This document shows, piece after piece, positions 15,067 through 58,612 of a stretch of DNA of 58,612 bases (its first letter is position 1; each line of letters opens with the position of its first letter). Both the position numbers and the translations under genes were made by a program. The notes below the pieces were generated by a model, which was not told the origin of the DNA, made no database searches, and worked only from the letters and a program-made list of their open reading frames with translations. Origin of the DNA: a virus; IMG/VR virus record IMGVR_UViG_3300045988_050777, one strand, 5' to 3'.

Positions 15067-15873
15067 ATGAAAAATAATGCAACAAAGAAAACGGATGTGT
15101 TCCTGATTGATCCACGAAACATAGTAGTGGAAGATGGCTTCAATGTCCGTAGAGATTTTGATCTGGATGAATTGAAAGAGCAAATCAAGGCGAAAGGGGT
15201 GCTGAATCCCTTAACCGTGATCGCTTTCAAGGATGAAAACGGTGATGAGAAATACAGGCTGGTAGATGGTGAACGCAGATTCCGTGCCACTATGATAGCC
15301 ATTTCAGAGGGTGCGGATATTCCCTTTGTGAAAGCGTTGAAGCGACCGCCAACAATGAGCCGTGAGGATCTGTACATAGAGCAGATGATGAGGAATGAGG
15401 GAAAGCGTTTTACTGAATATGAATGCGCTTTGATGTTCCAGCGGTTCAAAGAAGAGTTCGGATATACACAGGTGGAGATAGCGGACAAATTCAAGAAGTC
15501 CCCGGCATATATCAGCAAGTGCCTTTCTCTTCTGGATCTTCCAAAGGAGTTGCAAGAGCGGATTATGAGAAATGAGCTATCCATAACAGCGGCAAGGGAG
15601 ATTGCTTCAAGCTATGAAACGGAATCGGATCAAGTGAAAGCGGCTCAAAATGCTGTTAAGGCGGCAAAGGAACAAGGAAGAGAGACTGCAACCAACAGAG
15701 AGGTAACAGCCCACCTGAAAGAATCAAATGAGGCTAAGGCGGTAGCCAATGCCTTGCGTAGTATCTGGGCATATCTGGACGGTGAAAAGATGGTAGATGT
15801 GGATCGGCTGATTACGCTTCTGGATAAGGAACAAAGCCTATACCAAGCAATGAAACAATATAAAAAGATGTAA
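15067..15873 (+). CDS. ParB/Spo0J-like DNA-binding protein
   Basis: ParB N-terminal box LVDGERRFRA, and HTH YTQVEIADKFKKSPAYISKCLSLLDLP. Confidence 0.75.
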   Translation: MKNNATKKTDVFLIDPRNIVVEDGFNVRRDFDLDELKEQIKAKGVLNPLTVIAFKDENGDEKYRLVDGERRFRATMIAISEGADIPFVKALKRPPTMSREDLYIEQMMRNEGKRFTEYECALMFQRFKEEFGYTQVEIADKFKKSPAYISKCLSLLDLPKELQERIMRNELSITAAREIASSYETESDQVKAAQNAVKAAKEQGRETATNREVTAHLKESNEAKAVANALRSIWAYLDGEKMVDVDRLITLLDKEQSLYQAMKQYKKM

Positions 15874-17676: not shown

Positions 17677-18123
17677 TTGAAAGCTATGCTGATAATTGAT
17701 GTTCTTATCGTGTTTGCCGTGATAGTTGGCGTTCTGTTTGTGTTGCATAATTGGGGCGGCTACCTTGTAAACAAGTGGATGCCAGCCGACAATATGAAGC
17801 AAGGTGATGTGATGTACATTTACCTGAACAACGAATATAACAGGAAAGCGACCATTTCAAAGGTTGAGGAAAACCGTGTCTTTATCTATGACAAACTGCC
17901 TTTGCCTTTGTCCTATCGTGGCAAGTTCTATGCTGTTGGCGTAGATGTGTCGGATAACAGCCGTTTCCTATACATGAGGAAGCGTAGATATATCATACCG
18001 TGCCGGATTGTAGAGCGTTTCCGCAAATCTATAGGGCTGGATCAGTATCTGGATAATCTGCCAGTGAGTGAGGTTGAGGAAACGGAAGATAACGAGGAAA
18101 AGGAGGCAGAGGATGAAGTGTAG
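17677..18123 (+). CDS. Membrane-anchored hypothetical protein
   Basis: N-terminal TM helix and acidic C-terminus. Confidence 0.45.
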   Translation: MKAMLIIDVLIVFAVIVGVLFVLHNWGGYLVNKWMPADNMKQGDVMYIYLNNEYNRKATISKVEENRVFIYDKLPLPLSYRGKFYAVGVDVSDNSRFLYMRKRRYIIPCRIVERFRKSIGLDQYLDNLPVSEVEETEDNEEKEAEDEV

Positions 18124-19213
18124 CGAGATTACATATCGCCCTTTGTCGGAAATGGTGCTTTTGGAATCCAATCCGAGGACTATCAAGAAAGCCGATATGG
18201 ATCGGCTTGTGGATAGTATCAAGATTTACGGATTCTGGAAGCACCGACCTATTACGCTATCCGACCGGACGGGCAAACTGGTTGTGATAGCAGGAAACCA
18301 GCGTTTGAAAGCGGCTAAGAAATTGAAGCTGAAAGAAGTCCCTACCGTTGTCTATTCGGATCTTACGGAGGATGAGGAAAAGAATATCATTCTCCGGGAC
18401 AATATCAATAACGGAGAATGGGATTTCAACGCATTGCAAGTGGATGATGTCTGGAAAGATACCGATTTCAGCTTTATAGGTCTGACTATCCCGGAGGATG
18501 CAGAGCCTAAGAAGTCAAAGAAGAAAGCGGTTGAAGAGGATGAGCCGGAAGATGAGGCAGCGAGCGATGAGCAAGAGGATGGAAGCGAAGAGGCAAACGA
18601 CAAAGAGGCTTTCTACCGCTCCATGTTCAAAGATGTTTTGTATGAGAGCGACAACATTTTTGAGATCCCCAACTTGCTTCTGGAAATGCAAGCCGGAAAA
18701 CTGGAGTTGCCGTTATCTCCGTGGGGTGCAAACAGCCGTTTGAGGAAAGATGTAGCCACCTATCATTTCTATGTGGATGATTACAGGTTTGAGGCTCTTT
18801 TCAAAGATCCGATCAACTTGCTTGCAAGTGGCTGCAAAGCTGTGGTAGAGCCGAATTGTAGTTGCCACGACCAGACACCTATAGCGTGGGGCTTGCAACT
18901 CATCTACAAAAAACGGTGGTTATCCCGTTACTTCCAAGAGTGCGGTATAAGGGTGTATGCTGATTTGAATGTATCTCACAAATTCATAGAGTACAACAAA
19001 ATGGGGATTCCGAAAGGATATAATGCTTTCGCCACTCGTGGGCTGGACGGATGGATGGAAAGCCTTAAATCGGATCTCCAAGTAGCACAAGAGATTTCCT
19101 GGCTTGAAAAGCCTAACCTACTTGTTTATGGAGGCGGTAAGGATGTACAAGCGTTTTGCCGGAAACACGGGCTACTGTATGTAACCGATTTTATAAACGC
19201 AAAAAAGAAGTAG
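18113..19213 (+). CDS. ParB-like nuclease domain protein with DUF4417-like C-terminal domain
   Basis: ATG at 18113. LESNPRTI...VIAGNQRLKAAKKL (ParBc) and YHFYVDDYRFE in the C-terminal half. Confidence 0.6.
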   Translation: MKCSEITYRPLSEMVLLESNPRTIKKADMDRLVDSIKIYGFWKHRPITLSDRTGKLVVIAGNQRLKAAKKLKLKEVPTVVYSDLTEDEEKNIILRDNINNGEWDFNALQVDDVWKDTDFSFIGLTIPEDAEPKKSKKKAVEEDEPEDEAASDEQEDGSEEANDKEAFYRSMFKDVLYESDNIFEIPNLLLEMQAGKLELPLSPWGANSRLRKDVATYHFYVDDYRFEALFKDPINLLASGCKAVVEPNCSCHDQTPIAWGLQLIYKKRWLSRYFQECGIRVYADLNVSHKFIEYNKMGIPKGYNAFATRGLDGWMESLKSDLQVAQEISWLEKPNLLVYGGGKDVQAFCRKHGLLYVTDFINAKKK

Positions 19214-24495: not shown

Positions 24496-26949
24496 ATGGC
24501 TAAGTACATAAACGAAAAGAAGCTACAGCAGGAGTTATTCAAGCGCACGGAGGGGTATGCTGCCGAAGTGCGTAAAATATATCTGGATTCACTGGGTAAA
24601 ATCATTGAGCTTGTGAAAGGCACGGAGCTTGAAGATGGTAAGCCGTTTTCCTTTTCGGAGTATGGCTACAGTGAAGATGTTACGCCCATACTTCGCAATA
24701 TGTACAGCCAGACTTACCAGACGATCCGAAACAGCGTACAAAAGGAGTGGCTTTTATCCAACGAAAATAACGATGCTTTGGTTAAAAGTGTGTTTGGTGA
24801 ACAATCTATAGAGGATAACCACTTTGCCCGGTTCTTTCTCCGCAACATGGAGGCTATGGATGCTTTCTTTGCCAGAAAGACAAAGGACGGCTTAAACCTA
24901 TCGCAAAAGGTTTGGAAGTACACAGGGATGTACAAAGAAGAGCTTGAAAAGACTTTGGATCTGGCTATCGGTGAGGGCATACCAGCCAACAGGCTTGCAA
25001 CCAAGATTAAAGAGTACCTGAACGACCCGGATAGGTGGTACAGGCGTTTCCGTGTGAAGATCGGAGAAGATGAGAACGGAAATCCTATCTATGGCAGGAA
25101 ATGGAAACGCAGGGTGTACGACCAAACAACAGAAACCTACAAATGGGTGGATGATGATCCGAAGAAATACCACCCCGGAAAGGGTGTTTACCGTTCCTCA
25201 TATCGTAACGCTCAAAGGCTTGCCCGGACAGAAACAAACATTGCCTATAGGACTGCCGACTACACCCGTTGGGAGCAACTGGATTTTGTGGTAGGCATTG
25301 AAATCAAGTTGAGCAACAACCACCCCATACATGACATTTGCGATGATCTGAAAGGGATCTATCCGAAAACATTCAAATGGACTGGCTGGCATCCTAACTG
25401 TAGGTGCTATCAAGTGCCAGTGCTGGCAAAGGATGAGGAAATAGAAAAGATGTTGGATCGGCTTCTGGAGGATGAGAACGCTACACTTGAAAACAGCGAG
25501 AATGCCGTAGAGGACTTTCCTACACATTTCAAAGGATGGGTAAAGGCTAATGAGGATCGTATCAATGAAGCGACCTCAAAGGGAACTTTGCCGTACTTCA
25601 TACGGGACAATAAAAGCGGTGTGGATGAGATATTGCACCCTCTGACACCAGAACAGAAGCATCATAAGGAATTGGTAGGTAAATACGGAGAAAGTGCCGT
25701 ACAAGCCTTATATGATGCTTTTGATGCGTTCAAGGCAAAAATATCCGTAGGGGATCTTCCGTACCAGATAAAGAAGCTGGAGTTTGAAAAGAAATGGGTA
25801 GCCGACAAAAACAAGTTTCCGACTTCGCCAGAAATGGTGAAGATGCTTGAAAAGGAACTGGAATCCGTAAAGGCTCAATATGAAATACAGTTAGCCGTAG
25901 ATGCTGCCAAACCTTTGCTGGAGTACAAGAGCAAAAGCAAGCCTTTGAAAGCATTGCAAAATGAACTGAATGAGGCTATCAATGGCGGAAAGACTGCAAC
26001 GGAGATTAGAACACTGACTGATAAGGTTAAAGCGAAGATCTATGAGGTAGAGAAAGCCAGACTTTCAAAGCTGGCAAAGCAAGGTGATGGATCTACCATT
26101 GACTTGTACGCTACAGCGGAAGAGAAGTTGGAAATTGCCCGGCTTCAAGATGCTTATGATAAGGCTTTGGCTCAATACGGTAGCCAGTGGGATAGTAATG
26201 TTGGGTATGCCTACAAGCGTCTTGCTGAATACAAGAAAGAACTTGCATTGAAGTATGTTGATAAGCAAGGCAAACTGGTTAAACTGAACGGAGAAACGGA
26301 AGAACTTGCGAAAAAGGCTCTGGATGAGTATGTCAATGCACCTGTAAACCATTCCGGGAATAATGCTATTGGTGGCAGATGGCAGAACTACAGTAGCGAA
26401 GAGGATAAGATGAGGGCATACAGCAAAAAGACTGGCATTCCAGTAGATGAGCTTGCTTTGATCAATCGCTACACCTATGGCTCTAAATGGTGCAATAATT
26501 ATGGCTATGGCATAGTAGATCCGTACTTCGGGAAAGTTGAGGATTACGGAGGATTGTGCCAGAAATACTATCCGGCTCATAACGCAGCACTGGAGAAAAT
26601 GCCACGGTATAACGGTACTGTTTTATCTGGTATTAGCTTTGATTCTATGAAGCTGGAGAAGTATATCAAGGAAATGCAACAGTGCTTATCGTCTGGAACT
26701 CCGTATGTAAACAAGGCTTTTATGTCAAGCACCACAAGCATAGAGAACACGGCAATCTTTGGCGATAACCTTATGCTGGTGATCAAGAGCAAGAAAGGTG
26801 TGGATGTGAAAGCCATATCACACTACCCCAATGAAGATGAGGTTGTGTTTCGTGCCGGATCACGCTTCAAGGTGCTAAAGGTGTACCAAGAAACAGAGCG
26901 CAAATTTGGCTTTGGTAAAGGATGGGTAGTTGAACTGGAAGAGTTATAA
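24496..26949 (+). CDS. Minor head protein (SPP1 gp7 / Mu F-like) fused to a C-terminal ADP-ribosyltransferase domain
   Basis: NAQRLARTETNIAYRTADY (gp7/MuF motif). C-terminal R-S-E ART motifs: PRYNG, FMSSTTS, NEDEVVF. Confidence 0.8.
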   Translation: MAKYINEKKLQQELFKRTEGYAAEVRKIYLDSLGKIIELVKGTELEDGKPFSFSEYGYSEDVTPILRNMYSQTYQTIRNSVQKEWLLSNENNDALVKSVFGEQSIEDNHFARFFLRNMEAMDAFFARKTKDGLNLSQKVWKYTGMYKEELEKTLDLAIGEGIPANRLATKIKEYLNDPDRWYRRFRVKIGEDENGNPIYGRKWKRRVYDQTTETYKWVDDDPKKYHPGKGVYRSSYRNAQRLARTETNIAYRTADYTRWEQLDFVVGIEIKLSNNHPIHDICDDLKGIYPKTFKWTGWHPNCRCYQVPVLAKDEEIEKMLDRLLEDENATLENSENAVEDFPTHFKGWVKANEDRINEATSKGTLPYFIRDNKSGVDEILHPLTPEQKHHKELVGKYGESAVQALYDAFDAFKAKISVGDLPYQIKKLEFEKKWVADKNKFPTSPEMVKMLEKELESVKAQYEIQLAVDAAKPLLEYKSKSKPLKALQNELNEAINGGKTATEIRTLTDKVKAKIYEVEKARLSKLAKQGDGSTIDLYATAEEKLEIARLQDAYDKALAQYGSQWDSNVGYAYKRLAEYKKELALKYVDKQGKLVKLNGETEELAKKALDEYVNAPVNHSGNNAIGGRWQNYSSEEDKMRAYSKKTGIPVDELALINRYTYGSKWCNNYGYGIVDPYFGKVEDYGGLCQKYYPAHNAALEKMPRYNGTVLSGISFDSMKLEKYIKEMQQCLSSGTPYVNKAFMSSTTSIENTAIFGDNLMLVIKSKKGVDVKAISHYPNEDEVVFRAGSRFKVLKVYQETERKFGFGKGWVVELEEL

Positions 26950-26968
26950 CCACTAATTATAAAACACT

Positions 26969-27289
26969 ATGAAGATAGTAAGAAACCATTTTATTCCGTT
27001 CAAAGGATTCAAGGCTGTAAACCTTTTCGGAATCCTGTTTGTGAGAAAAGAGGCTGAATTGACCTCTACAGTGATCAATCATGAGTATATCCATACAGCG
27101 CAAATGAAAGAGCTTCTGTATGTGTTCTTTTACTTGTGGTATCTGGTAGAGTGGATCGTGCGTTTGTTCCAGAAAGGCAACGCATACCGCCAAATTTCGT
27201 TTGAAAGGGAAGCATACGCAAATGAAGATGATTTTGCCTACCTTTCAAATAGGAAACATTACTCATTTGTCCGCTATCTGAAAAGGTAG
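26969..27289 (+). CDS. Small HExxH-motif protein with a hydrophobic helix
   Basis: VINHEYIHTAQ and FEREAY. 106 aa. Confidence 0.4.
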   Translation: MKIVRNHFIPFKGFKAVNLFGILFVRKEAELTSTVINHEYIHTAQMKELLYVFFYLWYLVEWIVRLFQKGNAYRQISFEREAYANEDDFAYLSNRKHYSFVRYLKR

Positions 27290-27303
27290 GCAACAATGGA
27301 AGA

Positions 27304-27330
27304 AAGAGAGGTTTTTAAGCCTCTCTTTTG
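27304..27330. terminator. Bidirectional hairpin between convergent genes
   Basis: 8-bp stem AAGAGAGG/CCTCTCTT with an 8-nt loop, flanked by A and T runs. Confidence 0.5.
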
Positions 27331-27638
27331 CCAGTTTCAAATGACTTTTCCCAATTCGTAGTATCTCCGTATGGATTTGGGGATTTACCGGGTAAATAGT
27401 CATTGATAAGTTCCTTTTTCCACTCATTGTAGGCTTCTGTAAGGCTTTTCTTTGTGTCAGCCTTATCAAGATACCCGAAGTGGAAATTACGCTCATATTC
27501 CCAAAAAGAAGCGGCTAAGGGATGGAATGTGTCTTTGGTGTACGGATTCTCCTTTTCGCCCTTATACCAATGGTAATTTGAGTAATCTTCTGTTATGCCG
27601 GAAAAGAATCCGGCTTTGTTCCAATCTTCATTTGCCAT
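27315..27638 (-). CDS. Hypothetical protein
   Basis: 107-aa ORF, last gene of the leftward accessory island. Confidence 0.45.
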   Translation of the reverse strand: MANEDWNKAGFFSGITEDYSNYHWYKGEKENPYTKDTFHPLAASFWEYERNFHFGYLDKADTKKSLTEAYNEWKKELINDYLPGKSPNPYGDTTNWEKSFETGKREA

Positions 27639-28407
27639 ATTGAGATCTGTTGTTTAGTTTCTGAAAGAAATCCCCAAACGCATTGAGCATATCAACGGGC
27701 AACCTGTTGAAAGCCTCTTTGCGCATATCCTCTGGTATATCCCATTGCGCTTCTGCCATAGATCCTACTATTGCGCCTATGGTGTCACTATCCCCACCCC
27801 AAGAGATCGCCCGTCTTATGGCATCTTCAAAGGAGTTGCTTACACGGACTATTTTCAGACAAACGGGAACTGTACCCGGACACGTTTCATCAAACACGCC
27901 AGAGAAGTAATTGCTAAGCATAAAGCATGGGTAGTACCGATTCATTTCTCTTTCAAGTCCGGGCAGATTATGCGTTGTGCGCAGGTGAAAAATAGCGTGT
28001 GCAACGGCTACAGCACCTTTTATTCCCTCTGGATGGTTGTGTGTCACACTTGCAGTCTTTTCCGCTTCTGTCAGCACATCTTCCAGCCTATCAAATGCCC
28101 ATGCTACCGGGCTAACTCGCATTGCCGATCCATTCCCGAAACTATTGTACGGTTGCGGATCACTTGAAGCTATCCAACGGGCAAAGCTACCACCGTATGC
28201 TCCTTTGGGATTAGGGTATTTTCTGCACCAGTCAAGCAAGCTGCTTTTGTAGTCAGTGCCTTTTGTTATGGCATCCGCTATCGCAATGGTGCAAATGGTA
28301 TCATCCGTGAAAGTGCTTTCATCGGTGAACATTTCAAAATCGTATTTGTCTGTATTGTTGAACTCAAATCGTGATCCTACAATATCTCCAATAATCGCTC
28401 CTAACAT
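27628..28407 (-). CDS. ADP-ribosylglycohydrolase (ARH/DraG family)
   Basis: MLGAIIGDIVGSRFE, GNGSAMRVSP and GGDSDTIGAIVGSMAEA. The ATG at 28407 abuts the upstream stop (track ORF extends to 28455). Confidence 0.85.
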   Translation of the reverse strand: MLGAIIGDIVGSRFEFNNTDKYDFEMFTDESTFTDDTICTIAIADAITKGTDYKSSLLDWCRKYPNPKGAYGGSFARWIASSDPQPYNSFGNGSAMRVSPVAWAFDRLEDVLTEAEKTASVTHNHPEGIKGAVAVAHAIFHLRTTHNLPGLEREMNRYYPCFMLSNYFSGVFDETCPGTVPVCLKIVRVSNSFEDAIRRAISWGGDSDTIGAIVGSMAEAQWDIPEDMRKEAFNRLPVDMLNAFGDFFQKLNNRSQYGK

Positions 28408-28408
28408 A

Positions 28409-28699
28409 TCACTTGAAATTTTGATTATAATACCTTTCCGCCTGTATTCTGGCATACTTCGCTTTCCTGTATTTCATTCGGTAATACCATCTTGTGAGCC
28501 AGTACGAACAAACCAGCTTATCCATCCACTTTATTTCTTCAATATATGCTTCCGCAACGGATTGTTTCATAATAGAATCCATGAGTGCATTAAACTCCTT
28601 TCCAGTTTCAGCAATGCTTTTCGCAACCTCTTCAAATGCTCTGGATAACTCGTTTGCGGAATCCTCGCATATCTTTCTGATTGATTTCTCATCTTCCAT
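28409..28699 (-). CDS. Hypothetical protein
   Basis: Start MEDEKSIRK at 28699 abuts the upstream stop (track ORF extends to 28795). Confidence 0.4.
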   Translation of the reverse strand: MEDEKSIRKICEDSANELSRAFEEVAKSIAETGKEFNALMDSIMKQSVAEAYIEEIKWMDKLVCSYWLTRWYYRMKYRKAKYARIQAERYYNQNFK

Positions 28700-28700
28700 G

Positions 28701-28937
28701 TCACGCTCCTTTCCTTGATTGTTGTTTACGTTTGAGCTTCCCCATCCGAATAATACAATACTTGTTTGAGTATTCCCCATCGGAAAGATCCACATTCCAA
28801 AGGCTTTCTTTGGCTATTCCTACCAGCTTTTCCGGCAGTGTGTCATAGATTGCTGCCTTTGAGCCAAAGTAGTAGTGTTTCTTTCCGTTGTATGGCTCTC
28901 TTAGTTCTACATGGATAACCTTAAATTCCTGCTTCAT
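28701..28937 (-). CDS. Hypothetical protein
   Basis: ATG (MKQEFKV...) at 28937, preceded by a palindrome and a -7 box. The track ORF starts at a GTG at 28991. Confidence 0.45.
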   Translation of the reverse strand: MKQEFKVIHVELREPYNGKKHYYFGSKAAIYDTLPEKLVGIAKESLWNVDLSDGEYSNKYCIIRMGKLKRKQQSRKGA

Positions 28938-28943
28938 AATACT

Positions 28944-28965
28944 GTGTTTATTGAACGCAAATATA
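28944..28965 (-). promoter_or_regulatory. -7 box TATATTTG (minus strand) abutting a GTGTT-N5-AACGC palindromic element
   Basis: Plus strand GTGTTTATTGAACGC at 28944..28958 and CAAATATA at 28958..28965. Confidence 0.45.
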
Positions 28966-28990
28966 CGAATTATATTACATATAACAAACA

Positions 28991-29269
28991 CTAAGCACGA
29001 TCTTCAATAGATACAACCGTATAAAGCAAGGTTATCGGAGATATTCTGCACTGACCACCTACAATGTTTTTATCACGGAAGTATTCAACCAGCTTGCCTA
29101 TTACTTCATCCCTCATGTACTGTCTTTTGTCGAAATAGAAAGTTGCATTTCCGAAATTCCCAACGCCATAGAATGATTTACCGTTTTCCTTTTTGTCGAA
29201 AGGCAACAGTTCAAACAGTGATTTAATGCCGTTTACGGCTTCTTCTTTGGTAATGTTCTTAATATCCAT
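28991..29269 (-). CDS. Hypothetical protein
   Basis: 92-aa ORF in the leftward island. Confidence 0.45.
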   Translation of the reverse strand: MDIKNITKEEAVNGIKSLFELLPFDKKENGKSFYGVGNFGNATFYFDKRQYMRDEVIGKLVEYFRDKNIVGGQCRISPITLLYTVVSIEDRA

Positions 29270-29273
29270 AAGT

Positions 29274-29546
29274 TTATTTGTTTTTTGAGTTTAATTTACT
29301 TAGTAAAGTTACGTGCCTCTTCAACTCTTTATGTAGGTACTTGTTTTCATTTCGGAGTTCCTTAATTATATTGTTCCGTTTCTCCAGCTCCTCATTGTAT
29401 CGCTTCCGTTCAAATCCGGCAAATGTCAGGTTTCCCATATCTGTATCACAGGTGCAATCCCTAATATCTCCGCTATGAACTACAGACCAGCAATAAGGGA
29501 TTAAAACTTTCCCTAACTTCTCATCGTATATGTAGTGGCACTTCAT
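29274..29546 (-). CDS. Hypothetical protein (Cys-containing N-terminus, coiled-coil C-terminus)
   Basis: 90-aa ORF in the leftward island. Confidence 0.45.
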   Translation of the reverse strand: MKCHYIYDEKLGKVLIPYCWSVVHSGDIRDCTCDTDMGNLTFAGFERKRYNEELEKRNNIIKELRNENKYLHKELKRHVTLLSKLNSKNK

Positions 29547-29551
29547 ATATC

Positions 29552-29902
29552 CTACTTTGTTTCAAGTTCTGGTATCAAGTCTTTCACATACGCCCATCCC
29601 AAAACAACATTCTTCATCAATACGTAATTTTCTCCGAAGTTCACAGAATACCCATTCCCGTATGTTTTTCTGCATTCAAATAATACAAGCTGATTCTTAT
29701 CCGGCTTTTCGCTTGCATCGTGCCACACAGAGTTAATGCGCCATTCAGCACCCCTTGTGAAAGCATAAACACCTACTTCATCTGTAGCATGAATACTGCC
29801 AGCATCGTAGTTATCTTCTTCGTAGTTTACATCAAAATGGTTTTCAGCAATCAAGTTATCGGTAAACTCTCTTGCAGCCTTTTCTATCTGTTCCTGTTTC
29901 AT
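29552..29902 (-). CDS. Hypothetical protein
   Basis: 116-aa ORF in the leftward island. Confidence 0.45.
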   Translation of the reverse strand: MKQEQIEKAAREFTDNLIAENHFDVNYEEDNYDAGSIHATDEVGVYAFTRGAEWRINSVWHDASEKPDKNQLVLFECRKTYGNGYSVNFGENYVLMKNVVLGWAYVKDLIPELETK

Positions 29903-30099
29903 TCTTCTAATGTGTTATAAGTTTCTACACTATGCAACCGATCTTTTATTAGCCGGAAAAACTCTCTGCTCTTGTGTGATATGTTCCACCTAAATGTAGG
30001 GGCTGTTTGCCATTCTGAATTTTCGGGCGCATCCTCATAGGTGAATACAGCCCATTTGTCGGCAAAAAGTATCTGGATCATTGCTTTTATCTTTCTCAT
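29899..30099 (-). CDS. Hypothetical protein
   Basis: 66-aa ORF with a 4-nt overlap to the downstream gene. Confidence 0.4.
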   Translation of the reverse strand: MRKIKAMIQILFADKWAVFTYEDAPENSEWQTAPTFRWNISHKSREFFRLIKDRLHSVETYNTLEE

Positions 30100-30100
30100 G

Positions 30101-30262
30101 TCAGAATACTATGTTAAACGGTTTGTTTCTCAAAGTAGGCAGTTTGCTAACCACAAATTCGGAAAGCTCTTCTATATCCAGAGGAAAAGCCGGGCAATAC
30201 CTGTATCGCAATGTGGCAACAAATCTGCCTTTGAGCATCACATCAATAAACAGTGTTTTCAT
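30101..30262 (-). CDS. Small hypothetical protein (53 aa, below the ORF-track cutoff)
   Basis: MKTLFIDVMLKGRFVATLRYRY... Its stop lies 1 nt from the next gene's ATG. Confidence 0.35.
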   Translation of the reverse strand: MKTLFIDVMLKGRFVATLRYRYCPAFPLDIEELSEFVVSKLPTLRNKPFNIVF

Positions 30263-30313
30263 GCCTCTATTATCTTAGTTATATATTAGTTTTATAGTTT
30301 TATGAATATCTCC

Positions 30314-30372
30314 GTTACTCTATTAGTTACTTCTCTCGTACTTTATCAGTTACTCTATCAATTACTCTGTTA
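30314..30372. repeat. Five tandem 11-12-bp repeats (consensus GTTACTCTATNA), candidate centromere-like or regulatory site
   Basis: GTTACTCTATTA / GTTACTTCTCTC / GTACTTTATCA / GTTACTCTATCA / ATTACTCTGTTA, directly 3' of the ParA-like gene. Confidence 0.7.
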
Positions 30373-30387
30373 AATTTTGATATGGTA

Positions 30388-31635
30388 CTAATTGATCCAT
30401 TCATTATAAATGTCCTCCCAATTATCAAGTAATCCAACTCTTGCCCCAAAAACATTATAACAACATTCTACTGTTTCTTTTGGCGGTAAATATCTACCAT
30501 CGCTTAACATGATATATCCCTCGTTTATTTGTTGTTGTAGCAATTCCATATCTACTGGCATAACTTCATCCGGGAACAAAACAACATTACCCTTACTTGT
30601 TTGATAACTTACTCTCGGTATTTCATAATGGTATCTCTGACCTGTAAGCAATGAGCATATACCTATCTCGCCTGTGATAAGATGAACTTCCGTATTAGGA
30701 GCATTTATTACCATAAAATATGCGTTCTCATCATTCTTAAAATGATTTACCGTTCTACCCACAATTTTTGTATCGCATTTATCAATCCTTGCATCAAATT
30801 TGAATCCTGTATCATCGTGGTTTAATATATAATGTCGTACATGTTCCCATGTCCTAACGGATAAAAATTTGGGTGCTGGAAGATTTAGTGTTTTTTCAGT
30901 TCCATCATCATATTTAAGTTCATGCTGAACGTAACTACTCCGTGAACCAGTAAGGCACATTTCAACAATATCAAAACTCTCATCATATCCATTTTCTGTA
31001 GAGTATTCTTCAAGTACAACGCTTTCACTTGAAACTACTTCATCAATTATCTTTTGAAATTCTTCTTTTGCATTATGAAGCAAATTCCCGGTATTCATTT
31101 TGTCCTGCATGGGGATTTGTGCAACAAGTTTTATCGGATATTCCCTTTTCTCGTTATCATAGCACATGTTTTCTACAATACCGCATTTTACATTTCCGCA
31201 TTTTTCGTGAAAGAAATTCATTGTTCGTATCACGTCTTTTGTGCTTAATTTTGTTGGCTGTGTTACAAACACTACATAGCTAACTTTTATTCTACTAAGC
31301 AACTCTATGTGAACATTTGTAACACTCGGTGGAGTATCTATAAGAACGAAATCAGGGTTAATAAGCCGGAGTTTCTTTTTTGCCAGTTCGAGATACTGCC
31401 TTACCATAGACTTTTCCAGATATATAAAGTTATCAAACATATTTCCAGAAGAATGAATCCAAATGTTATCTTCCGGGTGATCTCCAGAAAATTCTGTATT
31501 CATAGAGGGGGTATTTATATCTGCATCTATGATAAAAACTTTATTGCCTTGCTCTGCAAATAACCTTGCAATATTGGCTGTTGTAGTAGTCTTTCCTACT
31601 CCACCCTTACCTGAATAAACAATAATTGCTTTCAT
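30388..31635 (-). CDS. ParA/MinD-family P-loop ATPase with a ~220-aa C-terminal extension of unknown function
   Basis: Deviant Walker A SGKGGVGKTTT at residues 8-18. IIDADINTPS and VLIDTPP motifs. No motif recognised in the C-terminal half. Confidence 0.7.
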   Translation of the reverse strand: MKAIIVYSGKGGVGKTTTTANIARLFAEQGNKVFIIDADINTPSMNTEFSGDHPEDNIWIHSSGNMFDNFIYLEKSMVRQYLELAKKKLRLINPDFVLIDTPPSVTNVHIELLSRIKVSYVVFVTQPTKLSTKDVIRTMNFFHEKCGNVKCGIVENMCYDNEKREYPIKLVAQIPMQDKMNTGNLLHNAKEEFQKIIDEVVSSESVVLEEYSTENGYDESFDIVEMCLTGSRSSYVQHELKYDDGTEKTLNLPAPKFLSVRTWEHVRHYILNHDDTGFKFDARIDKCDTKIVGRTVNHFKNDENAYFMVINAPNTEVHLITGEIGICSLLTGQRYHYEIPRVSYQTSKGNVVLFPDEVMPVDMELLQQQINEGYIMLSDGRYLPPKETVECCYNVFGARVGLLDNWEDIYNEWIN

Positions 31636-31832
31636 TTATTTTCTGATTCTAATTGTTTTTTGTACTGATCGTATATCTTATACGCTTCTTCCATTTCACA
31701 GTGAGTAATAGCGCATATAGAAGCCATTGCCGGAAACTTATCTTTGTATATTTCAACTATTCTCCTTATATGTACTTCATCTGGAGTATTTACCCATTTT
31801 ATTATATGTTGTTCAAATTCAGGGCTTATCAT
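31632..31832 (-). CDS. Hypothetical protein
   Basis: 66-aa ORF with a 4-nt overlap to the ParA-like gene. Confidence 0.4.
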   Translation of the reverse strand: MISPEFEQHIIKWVNTPDEVHIRRIVEIYKDKFPAMASICAITHCEMEEAYKIYDQYKKQLESENK

Positions 31833-32010
31833 TACAAACCTCCTTTCTTGCTATGTGCACACCTCTGGTATAGTTCCGCTCTACCTTGCGCAGATCATCA
31901 TACTTGCTTTGTGCAGCCGTTTTCAACACTCTGGGCTTTTCTCCTACCCATTCCGCTTTTACACCCTGCTCTCTTAGGGCATCCATTATTGCATCTTTCA
32001 GTATTCCCAT
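31819..32010 (-). CDS. Hypothetical protein
   Basis: 63-aa ORF in the island. Confidence 0.35.
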   Translation of the reverse strand: MGILKDAIMDALREQGVKAEWVGEKPRVLKTAAQSKYDDLRKVERNYTRGVHIARKEVCNDKP

Positions 32011-32018
32011 ATCCGTAG

Positions 32019-32321
32019 TTATTCGTTGTAGATCAATCGCATTATTCCAAGATTAACGGCATTGACTATTGCAATGCGCTTGTAGTACCGTTCACACGCC
32101 ACTTTGAAGCCGCCACACCAAGCTGTTTTTGCTTCGTATTGGGCTATTATGTTCTTTTCCACCTGTTCCAAGTCTGTAGCTGGAAAGGCTTCACCTATGC
32201 GTATCTGGTCGTTCTTATCGTGCTGTAGCACTCTGATGTAAATTGGATTATTCATATTCGATGTTGCATTTTGTTGGTTAAGGGTGGGTTTCCCCACCCG
32301 TTTTGTTATTGTCTTGCCCAC
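32019..32321 (-). CDS. Hypothetical protein
   Basis: 100-aa ORF. The true start may be the internal ATG at 32255. Confidence 0.4.
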   Translation of the reverse strand: MGKTITKRVGKPTLNQQNATSNMNNPIYIRVLQHDKNDQIRIGEAFPATDLEQVEKNIIAQYEAKTAWCGGFKVACERYYKRIAIVNAVNLGIMRLIYNE

Positions 32322-32680
32322 TCTTCAAAGGCTCTATAGTAACTATGTCTGATAAACAGCATATCGCCTGAACCATCACCCCACCAGTCGTTACAGTGGG
32401 AAATATATCTGCCTGTCTGGTTTCGGTTTGCCGGGCATAGCTTTTTGTAGATTGATCGGAACATTGCGGCAACCTTTCTACCCGAAAAATGCCCGGCTTC
32501 TTTTGCATCATTGGTACAATAGCCATACATTCCGACTGTTTCTATATTCCCGTTCTCATCCAGAAATTCCATATCTGCATCACCCCATGCACCATAGTTG
32601 ATAGTGTCTTTCAATAGCTGCTGTTGTTCCTCTGTGAGAACTGATACAATTTCCTGTACTTGTTTAATCGTTGCTTCCAT
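32306..32680 (-). CDS. Hypothetical protein
   Basis: 124-aa ORF in the island. Confidence 0.45.
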   Translation of the reverse strand: MEATIKQVQEIVSVLTEEQQQLLKDTINYGAWGDADMEFLDENGNIETVGMYGYCTNDAKEAGHFSGRKVAAMFRSIYKKLCPANRNQTGRYISHCNDWWGDGSGDMLFIRHSYYRAFEEWARQ

Positions 32681-32732
32681 ATCTTTTTGTTTTTAAGTTA
32701 TTCATTATTAGGTGCGTCTTTGCGCTCATAAT

Positions 32733-33098
32733 CTATTTTCTTAGAATGTTGTCCAATAACTCTTTATCGGCATCCCAAAGGTTATATCCTCTGGCAATCT
32801 TGCGCCTTAGATATTCCCTTTCACCTATCATGGCGATTGCTTTTTCTCGCAAGTCTGATGCACTCCATTTTTCAGCCTGATCAATCAGGAAGTTTGCAAG
32901 GCTCTTGCGCTCTTCGTACAGTTCACGAACCAGCACCGTTTTCACCTCAATCTCTCTTAGTGCATCCGGGTTTTCCACCCACAACTTACAGAACTGATCT
33001 TTGTCAAGGTCTGTTTTCATATAGCTTTCTTCTATCTTAGAGTAGCTATCATCTTGTACCTTTAATCCCGTTCTCTCTTCAAATTCTTTTTTAGTCAT
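32733..33098 (-). CDS. Hypothetical protein (first gene of the leftward island)
   Basis: 121-aa ORF downstream of the minus-strand -7 box. Confidence 0.45.
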   Translation of the reverse strand: MTKKEFEERTGLKVQDDSYSKIEESYMKTDLDKDQFCKLWVENPDALREIEVKTVLVRELYEERKSLANFLIDQAEKWSASDLREKAIAMIGEREYLRRKIARGYNLWDADKELLDNILRK

Positions 33099-33135: not shown

Positions 33136-33162
33136 GTGTTCCTTAAACACAGTGCAAATATA
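33136..33162 (-). promoter_or_regulatory. Minus-strand -7 box TATATTTG with a GTGTT-N5-AACAC palindrome 4 nt downstream
   Basis: Plus strand GTGTTCCTTAAACAC at 33136..33150 and CAAATATA at 33155..33162. Confidence 0.5.
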
Positions 33163-33269
33163 GTGTGTTATTTGTAATATACCAAATAATTTGCGGAGAT
33201 TTTTTCTGTAAAATTCTAACTTATTTTCTAACACACAGAAAATAAATACATTAACCAAGTAAATTTTCT

Positions 33270-33312
33270 GTGTTCTATGAACACATTTCTACGGAATTAT
33301 TTTCTATATTTG
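33270..33312 (+). promoter_or_regulatory. Perfect palindrome TGTGTTC-TAT-GAACACA upstream of -7 box TATATTTG (head operon promoter)
   Basis: GTGTTCTATGAACAC at 33270..33284 and TATATTTG at 33305..33312. ATG at 33359. Confidence 0.5.
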
Positions 33313-58430: not shown

Positions 58431-58502
58431 GGCTCTGTAGTTCAACGGATAGAACGGCGGTTTCCTAAACCGCAAATATGGGTTCGATTCCCATCGGAGC
58501 TA
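58431..58502 (+). tRNA. tRNA-Arg (anticodon CCT)
   Basis: Hand-folded cloverleaf, 72 nt. D-stem GTTC/GAAC, anticodon stem GCGGT/ACCGC with loop TTCCTAA, T-arm ATGGG-TTCGATT-CCCAT. The acceptor stem has two G-T pairs. Confidence 0.75.
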
Positions 58503-58513
58503 CTTTTTCGCCC

Positions 58514-58612
58514 ACTCTTTTAGCAAGGGTGGGCGTTTTCTTTTCCGCATTTACAGCAAAAAAAGCCTATCTTTGCGGTACAAAGTTCTACAAATGTTCT
58601 ACAGAAAAAAGA
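58514..58612. repeat. 99-bp direct terminal repeat, right copy
   Basis: Identical to 1..99. Contains the integrase promoter region. Confidence 0.95.

Follow-up and report, generated by a model that had tools for sequence, protein, structure and literature searches.

A leftward block of 15 minus-strand open reading frames (ORFs) in the temperate phage genome IMGVR_UViG_3300045988_050777 (58,612 nucleotides (nt), the whole of which is referred to here as the window) is probably a standing accessory region, in which a hotspot for cargo genes adjoins a distal set of toxin-immunity genes. The block occupies positions 27315-33098 and converges on a gene for a MuF head protein that carries an ADP-ribosyltransferase (ART) toxin domain at its C-terminus. 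The toxin-immunity system itself is already described for the Bacteroides phage toxin Bxa, and the window carries a second toxin subtype. The promoter-proximal part of the block, from the promoter-like site P1 to gene i11, would be a recombination hotspot that gathers interchangeable small cargo genes, including a mobile ATPase gene, and the distal part, after a second promoter-like site P2, would be a four-gene unit of i12, i13, ARH (an ADP-ribosylglycohydrolase) and i15, joined by 1-nt gaps and then an 11-nt overlap. ARH and i15 would protect the producing cell from the ART toxin on the convergent MuF head protein, with ARH hydrolysing the ADP-ribose placed on proteins by the toxin, and i15 probably binding and blocking the toxin active site, as Bsi does for Bxa. 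Host-type promoters on the strand opposite the late, toxin-making operon would allow the immunity proteins to be expressed independently of it.

The window belongs to the gut Bacteroidales temperate siphophages, in the lineage of PhiBxa and phage Versailles, with Bacteroides phage Versailles (ON453897, from B. caecimuris), equal in size and gene order, being the nearest named phage. Related loci were retrieved via the major head protein (105 loci, labelled L001 and so on), the C-terminal extension of MuF was classified in 61 of these, and block content was compared over 62 distinct islands of 2.4-7.6 kb, with 4-22 ORFs each and 887 ORFs in all. The toxin gene and the four distal genes are as follows.

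24496-26949, plus strand: MuF-ART toxin gene, 817 amino acids (aa); MuF (SPP1 gp7-like) head protein with a predicted C-terminal ADP-ribosyltransferase, converging on the block
27315-27638, minus strand: i15, 107 aa, last ORF of the block; PHROG 28232; occupies the Bsi position
27628-28407, minus strand: ARH, ADP-ribosylglycohydrolase, 259 aa; Pfam PF03747 at 119 bits
28409-28699, minus strand: i13, ~96 aa; PHROG 32472; homologue and positional equivalent of BACSTE_RS09440
28701-28937, minus strand: i12, 78 aa; first gene after P2; near-universal core gene

The preliminary description of this DNA had named the flanking gene a head-morphogenesis gene, which is right as regards the MuF head protein, however the toxin fusion had been overlooked. 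On its family matches, the product is MuF fused to a Bxa-family ADP-ribosyltransferase toxin, with PHROG 16625 ('Bxa ADP-ribosyl transferase') matched at 1099 bits, the head-morphogenesis PHROGs 7625, 1657, and 115 also matched, and the C-terminus matching the Pfam ART family PF01129 at 32.2 bits (cutoff 22.3); the match to NCBIfam TIGR01641 is weak, at 17.7 bits (cutoff 39.65). Residues 1-400 are 72% identical to the Versailles Bxa orthologue. The ART motif residues are R704, S744-S745-T746-T747, and E780-D781-E782, of which R704, S744-T747, and E780-x-E782 form the usual catalytic triad of arginine-specific transferases, and the motifs are kept in 13 of 14 distinct window-type sequences. In the toxin of L059, which is of the window type, Gln replaces the Arg of the catalytic motif (MPQYNG), and this may be an inactivated toxin that still keeps ARH and i15. 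The solved structures nearest to the ART domain are HopU1, Tre1, and Lmo0066.

Bxa of a B. stercoris prophage is a MuF-fused transferase that kills bacteria. The products of two adjacent genes neutralise it, namely the ADP-ribosylhydrolase BAH, the E15A mutant of which is inactive, and Bsi, a small Bxa-binding protein (PMC11699363). The window resembles the PhiBxa locus in having a MuF head protein that ends in an arginine-type ADP-ribosyltransferase, an opposite-strand ARH with the catalytic Glu15, a small ORF between ARH and the toxin gene, an RS09440-like ORF beyond ARH, and a backbone and gene order as in Versailles. In contrast to Bxa, the window toxin has 817 rather than 869 residues, and the two C-terminal domains share no significant similarity. 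The ORF that takes the place of Bsi is from another family, and downstream of the toxin gene there is an additional HExxH ORF. The study of the PhiBxa locus is moreover confined to the three ORFs adjoining bxa, with the rest of the block lying outside it. The correspondence is closest in ARH, which is 76% identical to the ARH that adjoins the Bxa orthologue of Versailles, shares with it an identical N-terminus (MLGAIIGDIVGSRFE, start at 28407), and aligns its Glu15 with the catalytic E15 of BAH. ARH can be put forward with high confidence as the counterpart of BAH, the enzymatic immunity protein. It had earlier been taken for cargo, however with a MuF-ART toxin of the Bxa family as its neighbour it is not free-standing cargo, and across relatives it pairs with the toxin, 35 of the 37 ART-bearing loci having an ARH as against 0 of the 23 without a toxin.

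The assignment of ARH and i15 to immunity stems from this co-variation with toxin subtype, which, like the block anatomy and the homologies, was observed directly across the 61 classified loci:

Window-type transferase: 13 loci; ARH in 13, i15 in 13, Bsi homologue in 0
Bxa-type transferase: 24 loci; ARH in 22, i15 in 0, Bsi homologue in 19
Short MuF without toxin domain: 23 loci; ARH in 0, i15 in 0, Bsi homologue in 0

Thus i15 accompanies the window-type ART in all 13 loci and is missing from the 24 Bxa-type and the 23 toxin-less ones, with Bsi homologues showing the reverse distribution (absent from 13 of 13 window-type loci). Two subclasses of the Bxa type depart from the common pattern, the 381-residue subclass (L011-L014, L106) having ARH and no Bsi homologue, and the 455-residue subclass (L004, L026) having a Bsi homologue without ARH, with two Bsi paralogues in the L004 island. 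In the 381-residue subclass, family 38 (106 aa, 5 islands) stands at the island end (L011 and a few tail patterns). The distal genes thus appear to partition with toxin subtype as expected for a polymorphic toxin and its cognate immunity genes, and the comparison suggests that every subtype of the toxin domain comes with a small partner gene of its own, as polymorphic toxin systems predict. Whilst unrelated in sequence to the Versailles Bsi orthologue, i15 is, with moderate confidence, a candidate binding immunity protein of the window toxin subtype, by position and co-occurrence an analogue of Bsi and not a homologue. Versailles encodes an 869-aa Bxa orthologue with E820 and, on the opposite strand and in order, a 107-aa Bsi orthologue (KYAE; KYxE motif), ARH, an i13 homologue, and an i12 homologue; the distal gene order of the window is the same, with i13 being 40% identical to the Versailles gene beyond ARH.

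Two further toxin systems bear comparison. The Apk2-Aph1-Tis1 loci are (p)ppApp synthetase MuF toxin loci of temperate phages (PMC11699363), and likewise combine a MuF-fused toxin in the head module with two immunity proteins, of which one is an enzyme that undoes the toxin product and the other acts by binding, differing in that the toxin activity is alarmone synthesis rather than ADP-ribosylation and in their hosts and phages. In Tre1-Tri1 of the type VI secretion system (PDB 6dre, 6drh), an arginine ADP-ribosyltransferase is similarly countered by an ADP-ribosylarginine hydrolase, however Tri1 is one bifunctional immunity protein, whereas the window would split the two functions over two phage genes. 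The similarity of the window ART to Tre1 is weak (E ~1e-3), and ARH falls below the cutoff of the NCBIfam Tri1 model.

The block itself is well delimited. GC skew and AT skew are positive over almost the whole genome and negative only at 27-33 kb, where the 15 minus-strand ORFs lie, with the MuF gene (24496-26949) on one side, and a scaffold-like gene, a 212-aa gene, and the major head protein gene following from 33359 on the other; a plus-strand ORF at 26969-27289 stands between the MuF gene and the block. With corrected starts, ten of the 14 ORF junctions have gaps of -14 to +8 nt, and the remaining four have gaps of 50-125 nt. Several true starts give shorter genes than the longest ORF, namely those of ARH (27628-28407, 259 aa) and i12 (28701-28937, 78 aa), and probably also those of i13 (28409-28699, 96 aa) and i03 (32019-32255, 78 aa, within an ORF that itself reaches 32321). 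The preliminary description was borne out in placing a minus-strand block of tightly coupled small ORFs between the head-morphogenesis and scaffold/capsid genes, however its count of ~14 mostly ORFan genes has to be revised, since there are 15 ORFs, of which 10 match a PHROG family and all 15 have homologues in related phages, and the block genes are not ORFans. The signals that bound and divide the block are listed below.

33155-33186, minus strand: P1, TTTG-N20-TATATTTG; Bacteroides-type promoter-like site heading the block
28958-28988, minus strand: P2, TTTG-N19-TATATTTG; internal promoter-like site in the 53-nt gap just upstream of i12
27303-27328, both strands: hairpin between the convergent units, overlapping the stop codon of the last minus-strand gene, i15

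Both P1 and P2 follow the Bacteroides -33/-7 promoter consensus. The minus-strand -7 box that had been described at 33155-33162 is present (TATATTTG at 33162..33155), with TTTG 20 nt before it, and 61 of 78 distinct relatives have the -33/-7 pattern in the corresponding position. The sequence of P2 resembles that of P1, with the full pattern found upstream of the i12 homologues in 28, and the -7 box in 46, of 67 distinct relatives. Over the whole window the pattern is matched six times against 1.43 expected, three of the matches being on the minus strand inside the block and two of the six being P1 and P2. Given this second promoter-like site and its recurrence in relatives, i12, i13, ARH, and i15 are plausibly a separate unit. 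The bidirectional hairpin noted earlier at the end of the block also stands, folding better than shuffled sequence on both strands (-19 kcal/mol and z = -3.8 on the plus strand, -14.3 kcal/mol and z = -2.9 on the minus strand), and appears terminator-like. An inverted repeat, CACAGAAAAT-N19-ATTTTCTGTG, lies at 33234-33272 between the divergent promoters and is perhaps regulatory, as perhaps are several ACACA/TGTGT motifs surrounding P1. As regards a repressor operator common to P1, P2, and the promoter of the early genes, only half-site-like resemblances were seen. An Rfam search matched only a tRNA outside the block, and the literature searched on phage Versailles contained no transcript data.

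In every relative a minus-strand block stands between MuF and the scaffold-like gene, with none lacking it and none having it inverted. No long repeats were found flanking the block, and an invertible or excisable island is rejected on these grounds, the block being neither inverted nor missing in any relative. The equivalent leftward block of phage Versailles (L001) lies mid-genome at ~26.9-33.4 kb. Within this fixed position the content is highly mosaic, the 62 distinct islands holding 222 gene families, 100 of which are singletons, and only one near-universal family, that of the 78-aa i12 (59 of 62 islands). Other islands carry YopX, KilA-N/ANT antirepressors, C5 and other DNA methyltransferases, RtcB (L025, L044, L046, L105), radical SAM (L016, L059, L061, L064), DUF2400 (L004, L026), and HU-like proteins. 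Gene order is constant, with variable genes followed by i12, and then by immunity genes, an antirepressor module, or nothing. KilA-N/ANT genes take the distal position in seven islands (L003, L010, L024, L028, L029, L059, L094), after i12 where i12 is present, and in toxin-less phages the antirepressor module fills the toxin-immunity position. Gene by gene, L107 is 98-100% identical to the window, except in the ATPase slot, where identity is 82%.

Judged from these comparisons, the block is a variable hotspot of swap-prone cargo at a fixed position, a point that the preliminary description had put forward for checking. The same description held that a conserved block of ordinary structural genes would speak against accessory cargo; the position proved to be universal, but the content is mosaic and non-structural. 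Its wider proposal of accessory or defence cargo holds in that the cargo is variable and non-structural, with methylases, RtcB, and antirepressors in other islands, and fails as regards known defence families. Phage morons, and plasticity regions generally, are non-structural genes inside late operons, and the block is like them in its own promoter-like and terminator-like signals and in content that varies between close relatives. It differs from morons in that its position is fixed in all relatives, in its universal core gene, and in that part of it is tied to the adjacent toxin gene.

Several points weigh against this reading of the block. Eleven of the 15 block genes have no assigned function. 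The window ART domain falls in a different sequence cluster from the Bxa ART, so that its toxicity to bacteria is an extrapolation from Bxa, and rescue by ARH and binding by i15 are in turn predicted from the described system. No similarity was detected between i15 and either Bsi or any other characterised immunity protein, and the link of i15 to the toxin consists of adjacency and co-occurrence, which plain co-inheritance of neighbouring DNA would equally give. BACSTE_RS09440, to which i13 is homologous, failed to neutralise Bxa when tested (PMC11699363), and therefore not every gene of the P2 unit is an immunity gene. Additionally, the promoter activity of P1 and P2 and its timing are read from motifs alone, and the scaffold gene has a plus-strand -7 box (TATATTTG) of its own at 33305-33312, ~50 nt upstream, so that the host-type box does not mark the block off from the late genes.

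The strongest alternative, itself unlikely, is that the block is a backbone regulatory or early operon needed for the life cycle, with i12 as a regulator. This is favoured by the presence of the block in 62 of 62 distinct relatives and of i12 in 59, by the conservation of the promoter-like sites, by the antirepressors in the distal position of seven islands, and by the i12 alignment, which was read as maybe helix-turn-helix-like without tool support. i12 is always found at the border of the variable genes and the distal module, and belongs to a family of 734 database clusters, all unnamed and without a Pfam match. However, no DNA-binding family was matched by i12 in Pfam, NCBIfam, or PDB, with a search of the i12 profile against solved structures (PDB) giving nothing significant, and all genes save i12 are dispensable in relatives, the 100 singletons among the 222 families included. 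Furthermore, a regulatory operon is compatible with immunity through ARH and i15 and does not replace it.

A further gene of the block encodes an ATPase, which the preliminary description had singled out, together with ARH, as the only recognisable products. Both are indeed domain-bearing, however the label ParA-like does not hold for the ATPase, which misses all ParA, MinD, and ApbC cutoffs.

30388-31635, minus strand: ATPase, 415 aa; Mrp/MinD-fold N-domain (residues ~1-200) and orphan C-domain (~204-415)
30314-30372, no strand assigned: five tandem 12-nt copies, TAATAGAGTAAC on the coding strand (Tandem Repeats Finder), in the 125-nt gap after the ATPase gene

The N-domain matches Pfam PF10609 at 98.6 bits and has a deviant Walker A motif that includes the signature lysine (GKGGVGKT), with ApbC, Cfd1, Mrp-type HypB, and MinD being nearest by sequence and fold. 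It shares the fold of its 200 residues with the Mrp/NBP35/ApbC and MinD clade (PDB 8zkc, 6g2g, 3vx3, 3q9l), along with the motifs KGGVGK[TS], DxD, D-x-PP, and ENM. In contrast to that clade, the ATPase lacks CxxC ligands or a conserved cysteine, none of the cysteines being invariant or nearly so among 47 family members, and lies far under every NCBIfam cutoff (ParA_partition 50.8 bits against 180, MrpORP 75.6 against 450, ApbC 59.8 against 348, and the MinD models TIGR01968 47.6 against 212.9 and TIGR01969 53.2 against 201.75); its similarity to MinD is at the level of the fold only. It further differs in a C-terminal domain of 210 residues, for which a confident model (pLDDT 91, pTM 0.84 for residues 204-415) found no match in PDB or BFVD at E<=0.001, and nothing beyond a small SH3-like sub-barrel. 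The C-domain occurs in ~100 clusters at 50% identity and, apparent fragments aside, in proteins of ~400-440 residues, where it is likewise at the C-terminus.

The ATPase gene is found in 3 of the 62 distinct islands, the window included, and has no constant neighbour in 68 distinct loci. It is ~80% identical in LoVEphage-type phages and similarly conserved in phages carrying a diversity-generating retroelement (DGR), the identities over the three unrelated phage backbones ranging over ~80-97%. In the LoVEphage type (BI-TP1, PQ571265, L195 5001-7078) a 272-aa tyrosine-recombinase-like gene comes directly after it, where the replication operon ends, and in the DGR-carrying phages (L111-L114) its neighbours are radical SAM and DUF2400 genes, with a Tad2-like/Sequestin gene three genes away. 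GC content drops to 0.35-0.36 at the ATPase, and this drop, together with the 82% identity of the L107 slot between flanks at 98-100%, suggests that the ATPase behaves as a mobile single-gene cassette. The 12-nt repeats are restricted to one junction, seen in the window, in L115 and, within the L107-L110 group, in L109, and are not carried along with either the ATPase or i07; a centromere-like role for them is rejected, since they do not travel with the ATPase. A role for the ATPase as an iron-sulphur carrier for a radical SAM enzyme, suggested by the radical SAM context in the DGR phages, was also rejected as a general explanation, the window having no radical SAM or DUF2400 gene, the family no conserved cysteine, and islands with radical SAM genes no ATPase.

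It is possible, though on balance doubtful, that the ATPase is a new single-gene phage accessory function, in which a dimerising switch of the Mrp/MinD fold is joined to an orphan domain and which passes as a cassette among at least three unrelated lineages of temperate Bacteroidales phages, and, separately, that i15 is a new family of ART inhibitors. The target of the ATPase could be a conserved host one, for instance in counter-defence, superinfection exclusion, or interference with host division or metallocluster delivery. That the block instead hides a multi-gene defence or anti-defence system formed around the ATPase and its small neighbours, as had been proposed of an undescribed system, is improbable. 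The retention of ~80-97% identity across three unrelated backbones, a C-domain without structural relatives, the Tad2-like anti-Thoeris gene three genes away in the DGR-carrying phages, and the methylases and RtcB of other islands, typical counter-defence genes, would all suit such a system. However, a PADLOC search (PADLOC-DB 2.0) of the 15 block products, the 106-aa ORF and the MuF protein returned no known defence system, the matches being overlaps of PDC-M28B and PDC-S73 with the P-loop (ATPase residues 3-46) and one weak, chance-level match to Cas11b. The ATPase moreover lacks a constant neighbour, the adjoining i05 is missing from L107-L110, all of which have the ATPase, and besides the distal immunity module no gene set travels together.

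That the ATPase is a ParA partition protein for an extrachromosomal prophage is scarcely credible: its deviant Walker A motif and ParA/MinD-like fold, the label 'ParA-like partition protein' in GenBank records of related phages, and two ParB-N-domain proteins encoded elsewhere in the window point that way, however the genome encodes an integrase and an S24 repressor, the ParA_partition score is far from its cutoff, the best matches are of the Mrp/ApbC type rather than ParA, the ParB-like gene is a backbone gene that Versailles has (74%) without the ATPase, and the ATPase is confined to 3 of 62 islands and is not accompanied by the 12-nt repeats. Membership of a ParABS system was accordingly rejected, with the score short of the cutoff and no linked ParB or centromere travelling with the ATPase. 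The two ParB-N-domain proteins are encoded in the early region at 15067-15873 and 18068-19213 (plus strand), one with HTH_ParB and one with DUF4417, and the first, a backbone protein with 74% identity in Versailles, is unlinked to the ATPase.

The remaining block genes, from i01 to i11, are small cargo genes:

32733-33098, minus strand: i01, 121 aa, first after P1; PHROG 15742 (8e-60); 30 of 62 islands
32306-32680, minus strand: i02, 124 aa; 21 of 106 loci
32019-32255, minus strand: i03; PHROG 35785 from residue 23 of the longest ORF; 25 of 106 loci
31819-32010, minus strand: i04, 63 aa; PHROG 23198; 42 of 106 loci
31632-31832, minus strand: i05, 66 aa, rare; 3 of 106 loci; 3' end overlaps the ATPase start
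30101-30262, minus strand: i07, 53 aa; PHROG 24381; 25 of 62 islands
29899-30099, minus strand: i08, 66 aa; 12 of 106 loci; no family match
29552-29902, minus strand: i09, 116 aa; PHROG 32914; family in 20 of 62 islands
29274-29546, minus strand: i10, 90 aa; PHROG 24654; 6 of 106 loci
28991-29269, minus strand: i11, 92 aa, rare; 93-100% identical in L107 and L108, 35% in L075

The PHROG families matched by the small block ORFs carry no function, Pfam searched to E = 5 returned only chance-level matches for them, and NCBIfam gave no match for the six submitted; for i11 no family was matched in Pfam, PHROG, or PADLOC. i02 is shared with the DGR-carrying phages, being 65-68% identical to a gene in L111-L114. 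On the other side of the hairpin lies a further small gene:

26969-27289, plus strand: 106-aa ORF with a HEYIH motif and a hydrophobic segment; PHROG 15610 'protease' (2e-39)

This ORF has no match in Pfam or NCBIfam. Of 106 related loci only 3 have it, each with a toxin of the window type, and it is absent from L107-L110. Its position directly after the toxin gene is the usual place of an immunity gene.

As to the genome as a whole, the first 99 bases recur at 58514-58612 as a direct repeat of 99 bp (1-99 and 58514-58612), and the window is therefore a closed phage genome of ~58.5 kb, or a terminally redundant one. Its left part encodes an integrase, an S24-type repressor, RecT, an SbcC-like ATPase, and the two ParB-N-domain proteins, with the terminase, portal, head, and tail genes coming after this early region. 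A complete tRNA-Arg(CCT) gene at 58431-58503 lies directly upstream of the integrase gene.

Published biology and ordinary phage mosaicism account for most of the finding, with the orphan-domain ATPase, the universal 78-aa i12, and the candidate inhibitor i15 as its most novel items. The window presents a second toxin subtype on the same head-protein scaffold as Bxa, with the same hydrolase antidote and another candidate inhibitor, and the comparison of subtypes with their partners amounts to a list of candidate toxin-inhibitor pairs for phage toxins of the Bxa type, which are reported to affect Bacteroides colonisation of the human gut. Furthermore, the fixed hotspot of this abundant gut phage lineage, with 222 families in 62 islands, is a source for the mining of new phage accessory genes, one such gene being the orphan-domain ATPase common to several major groups of Bacteroidales phages.

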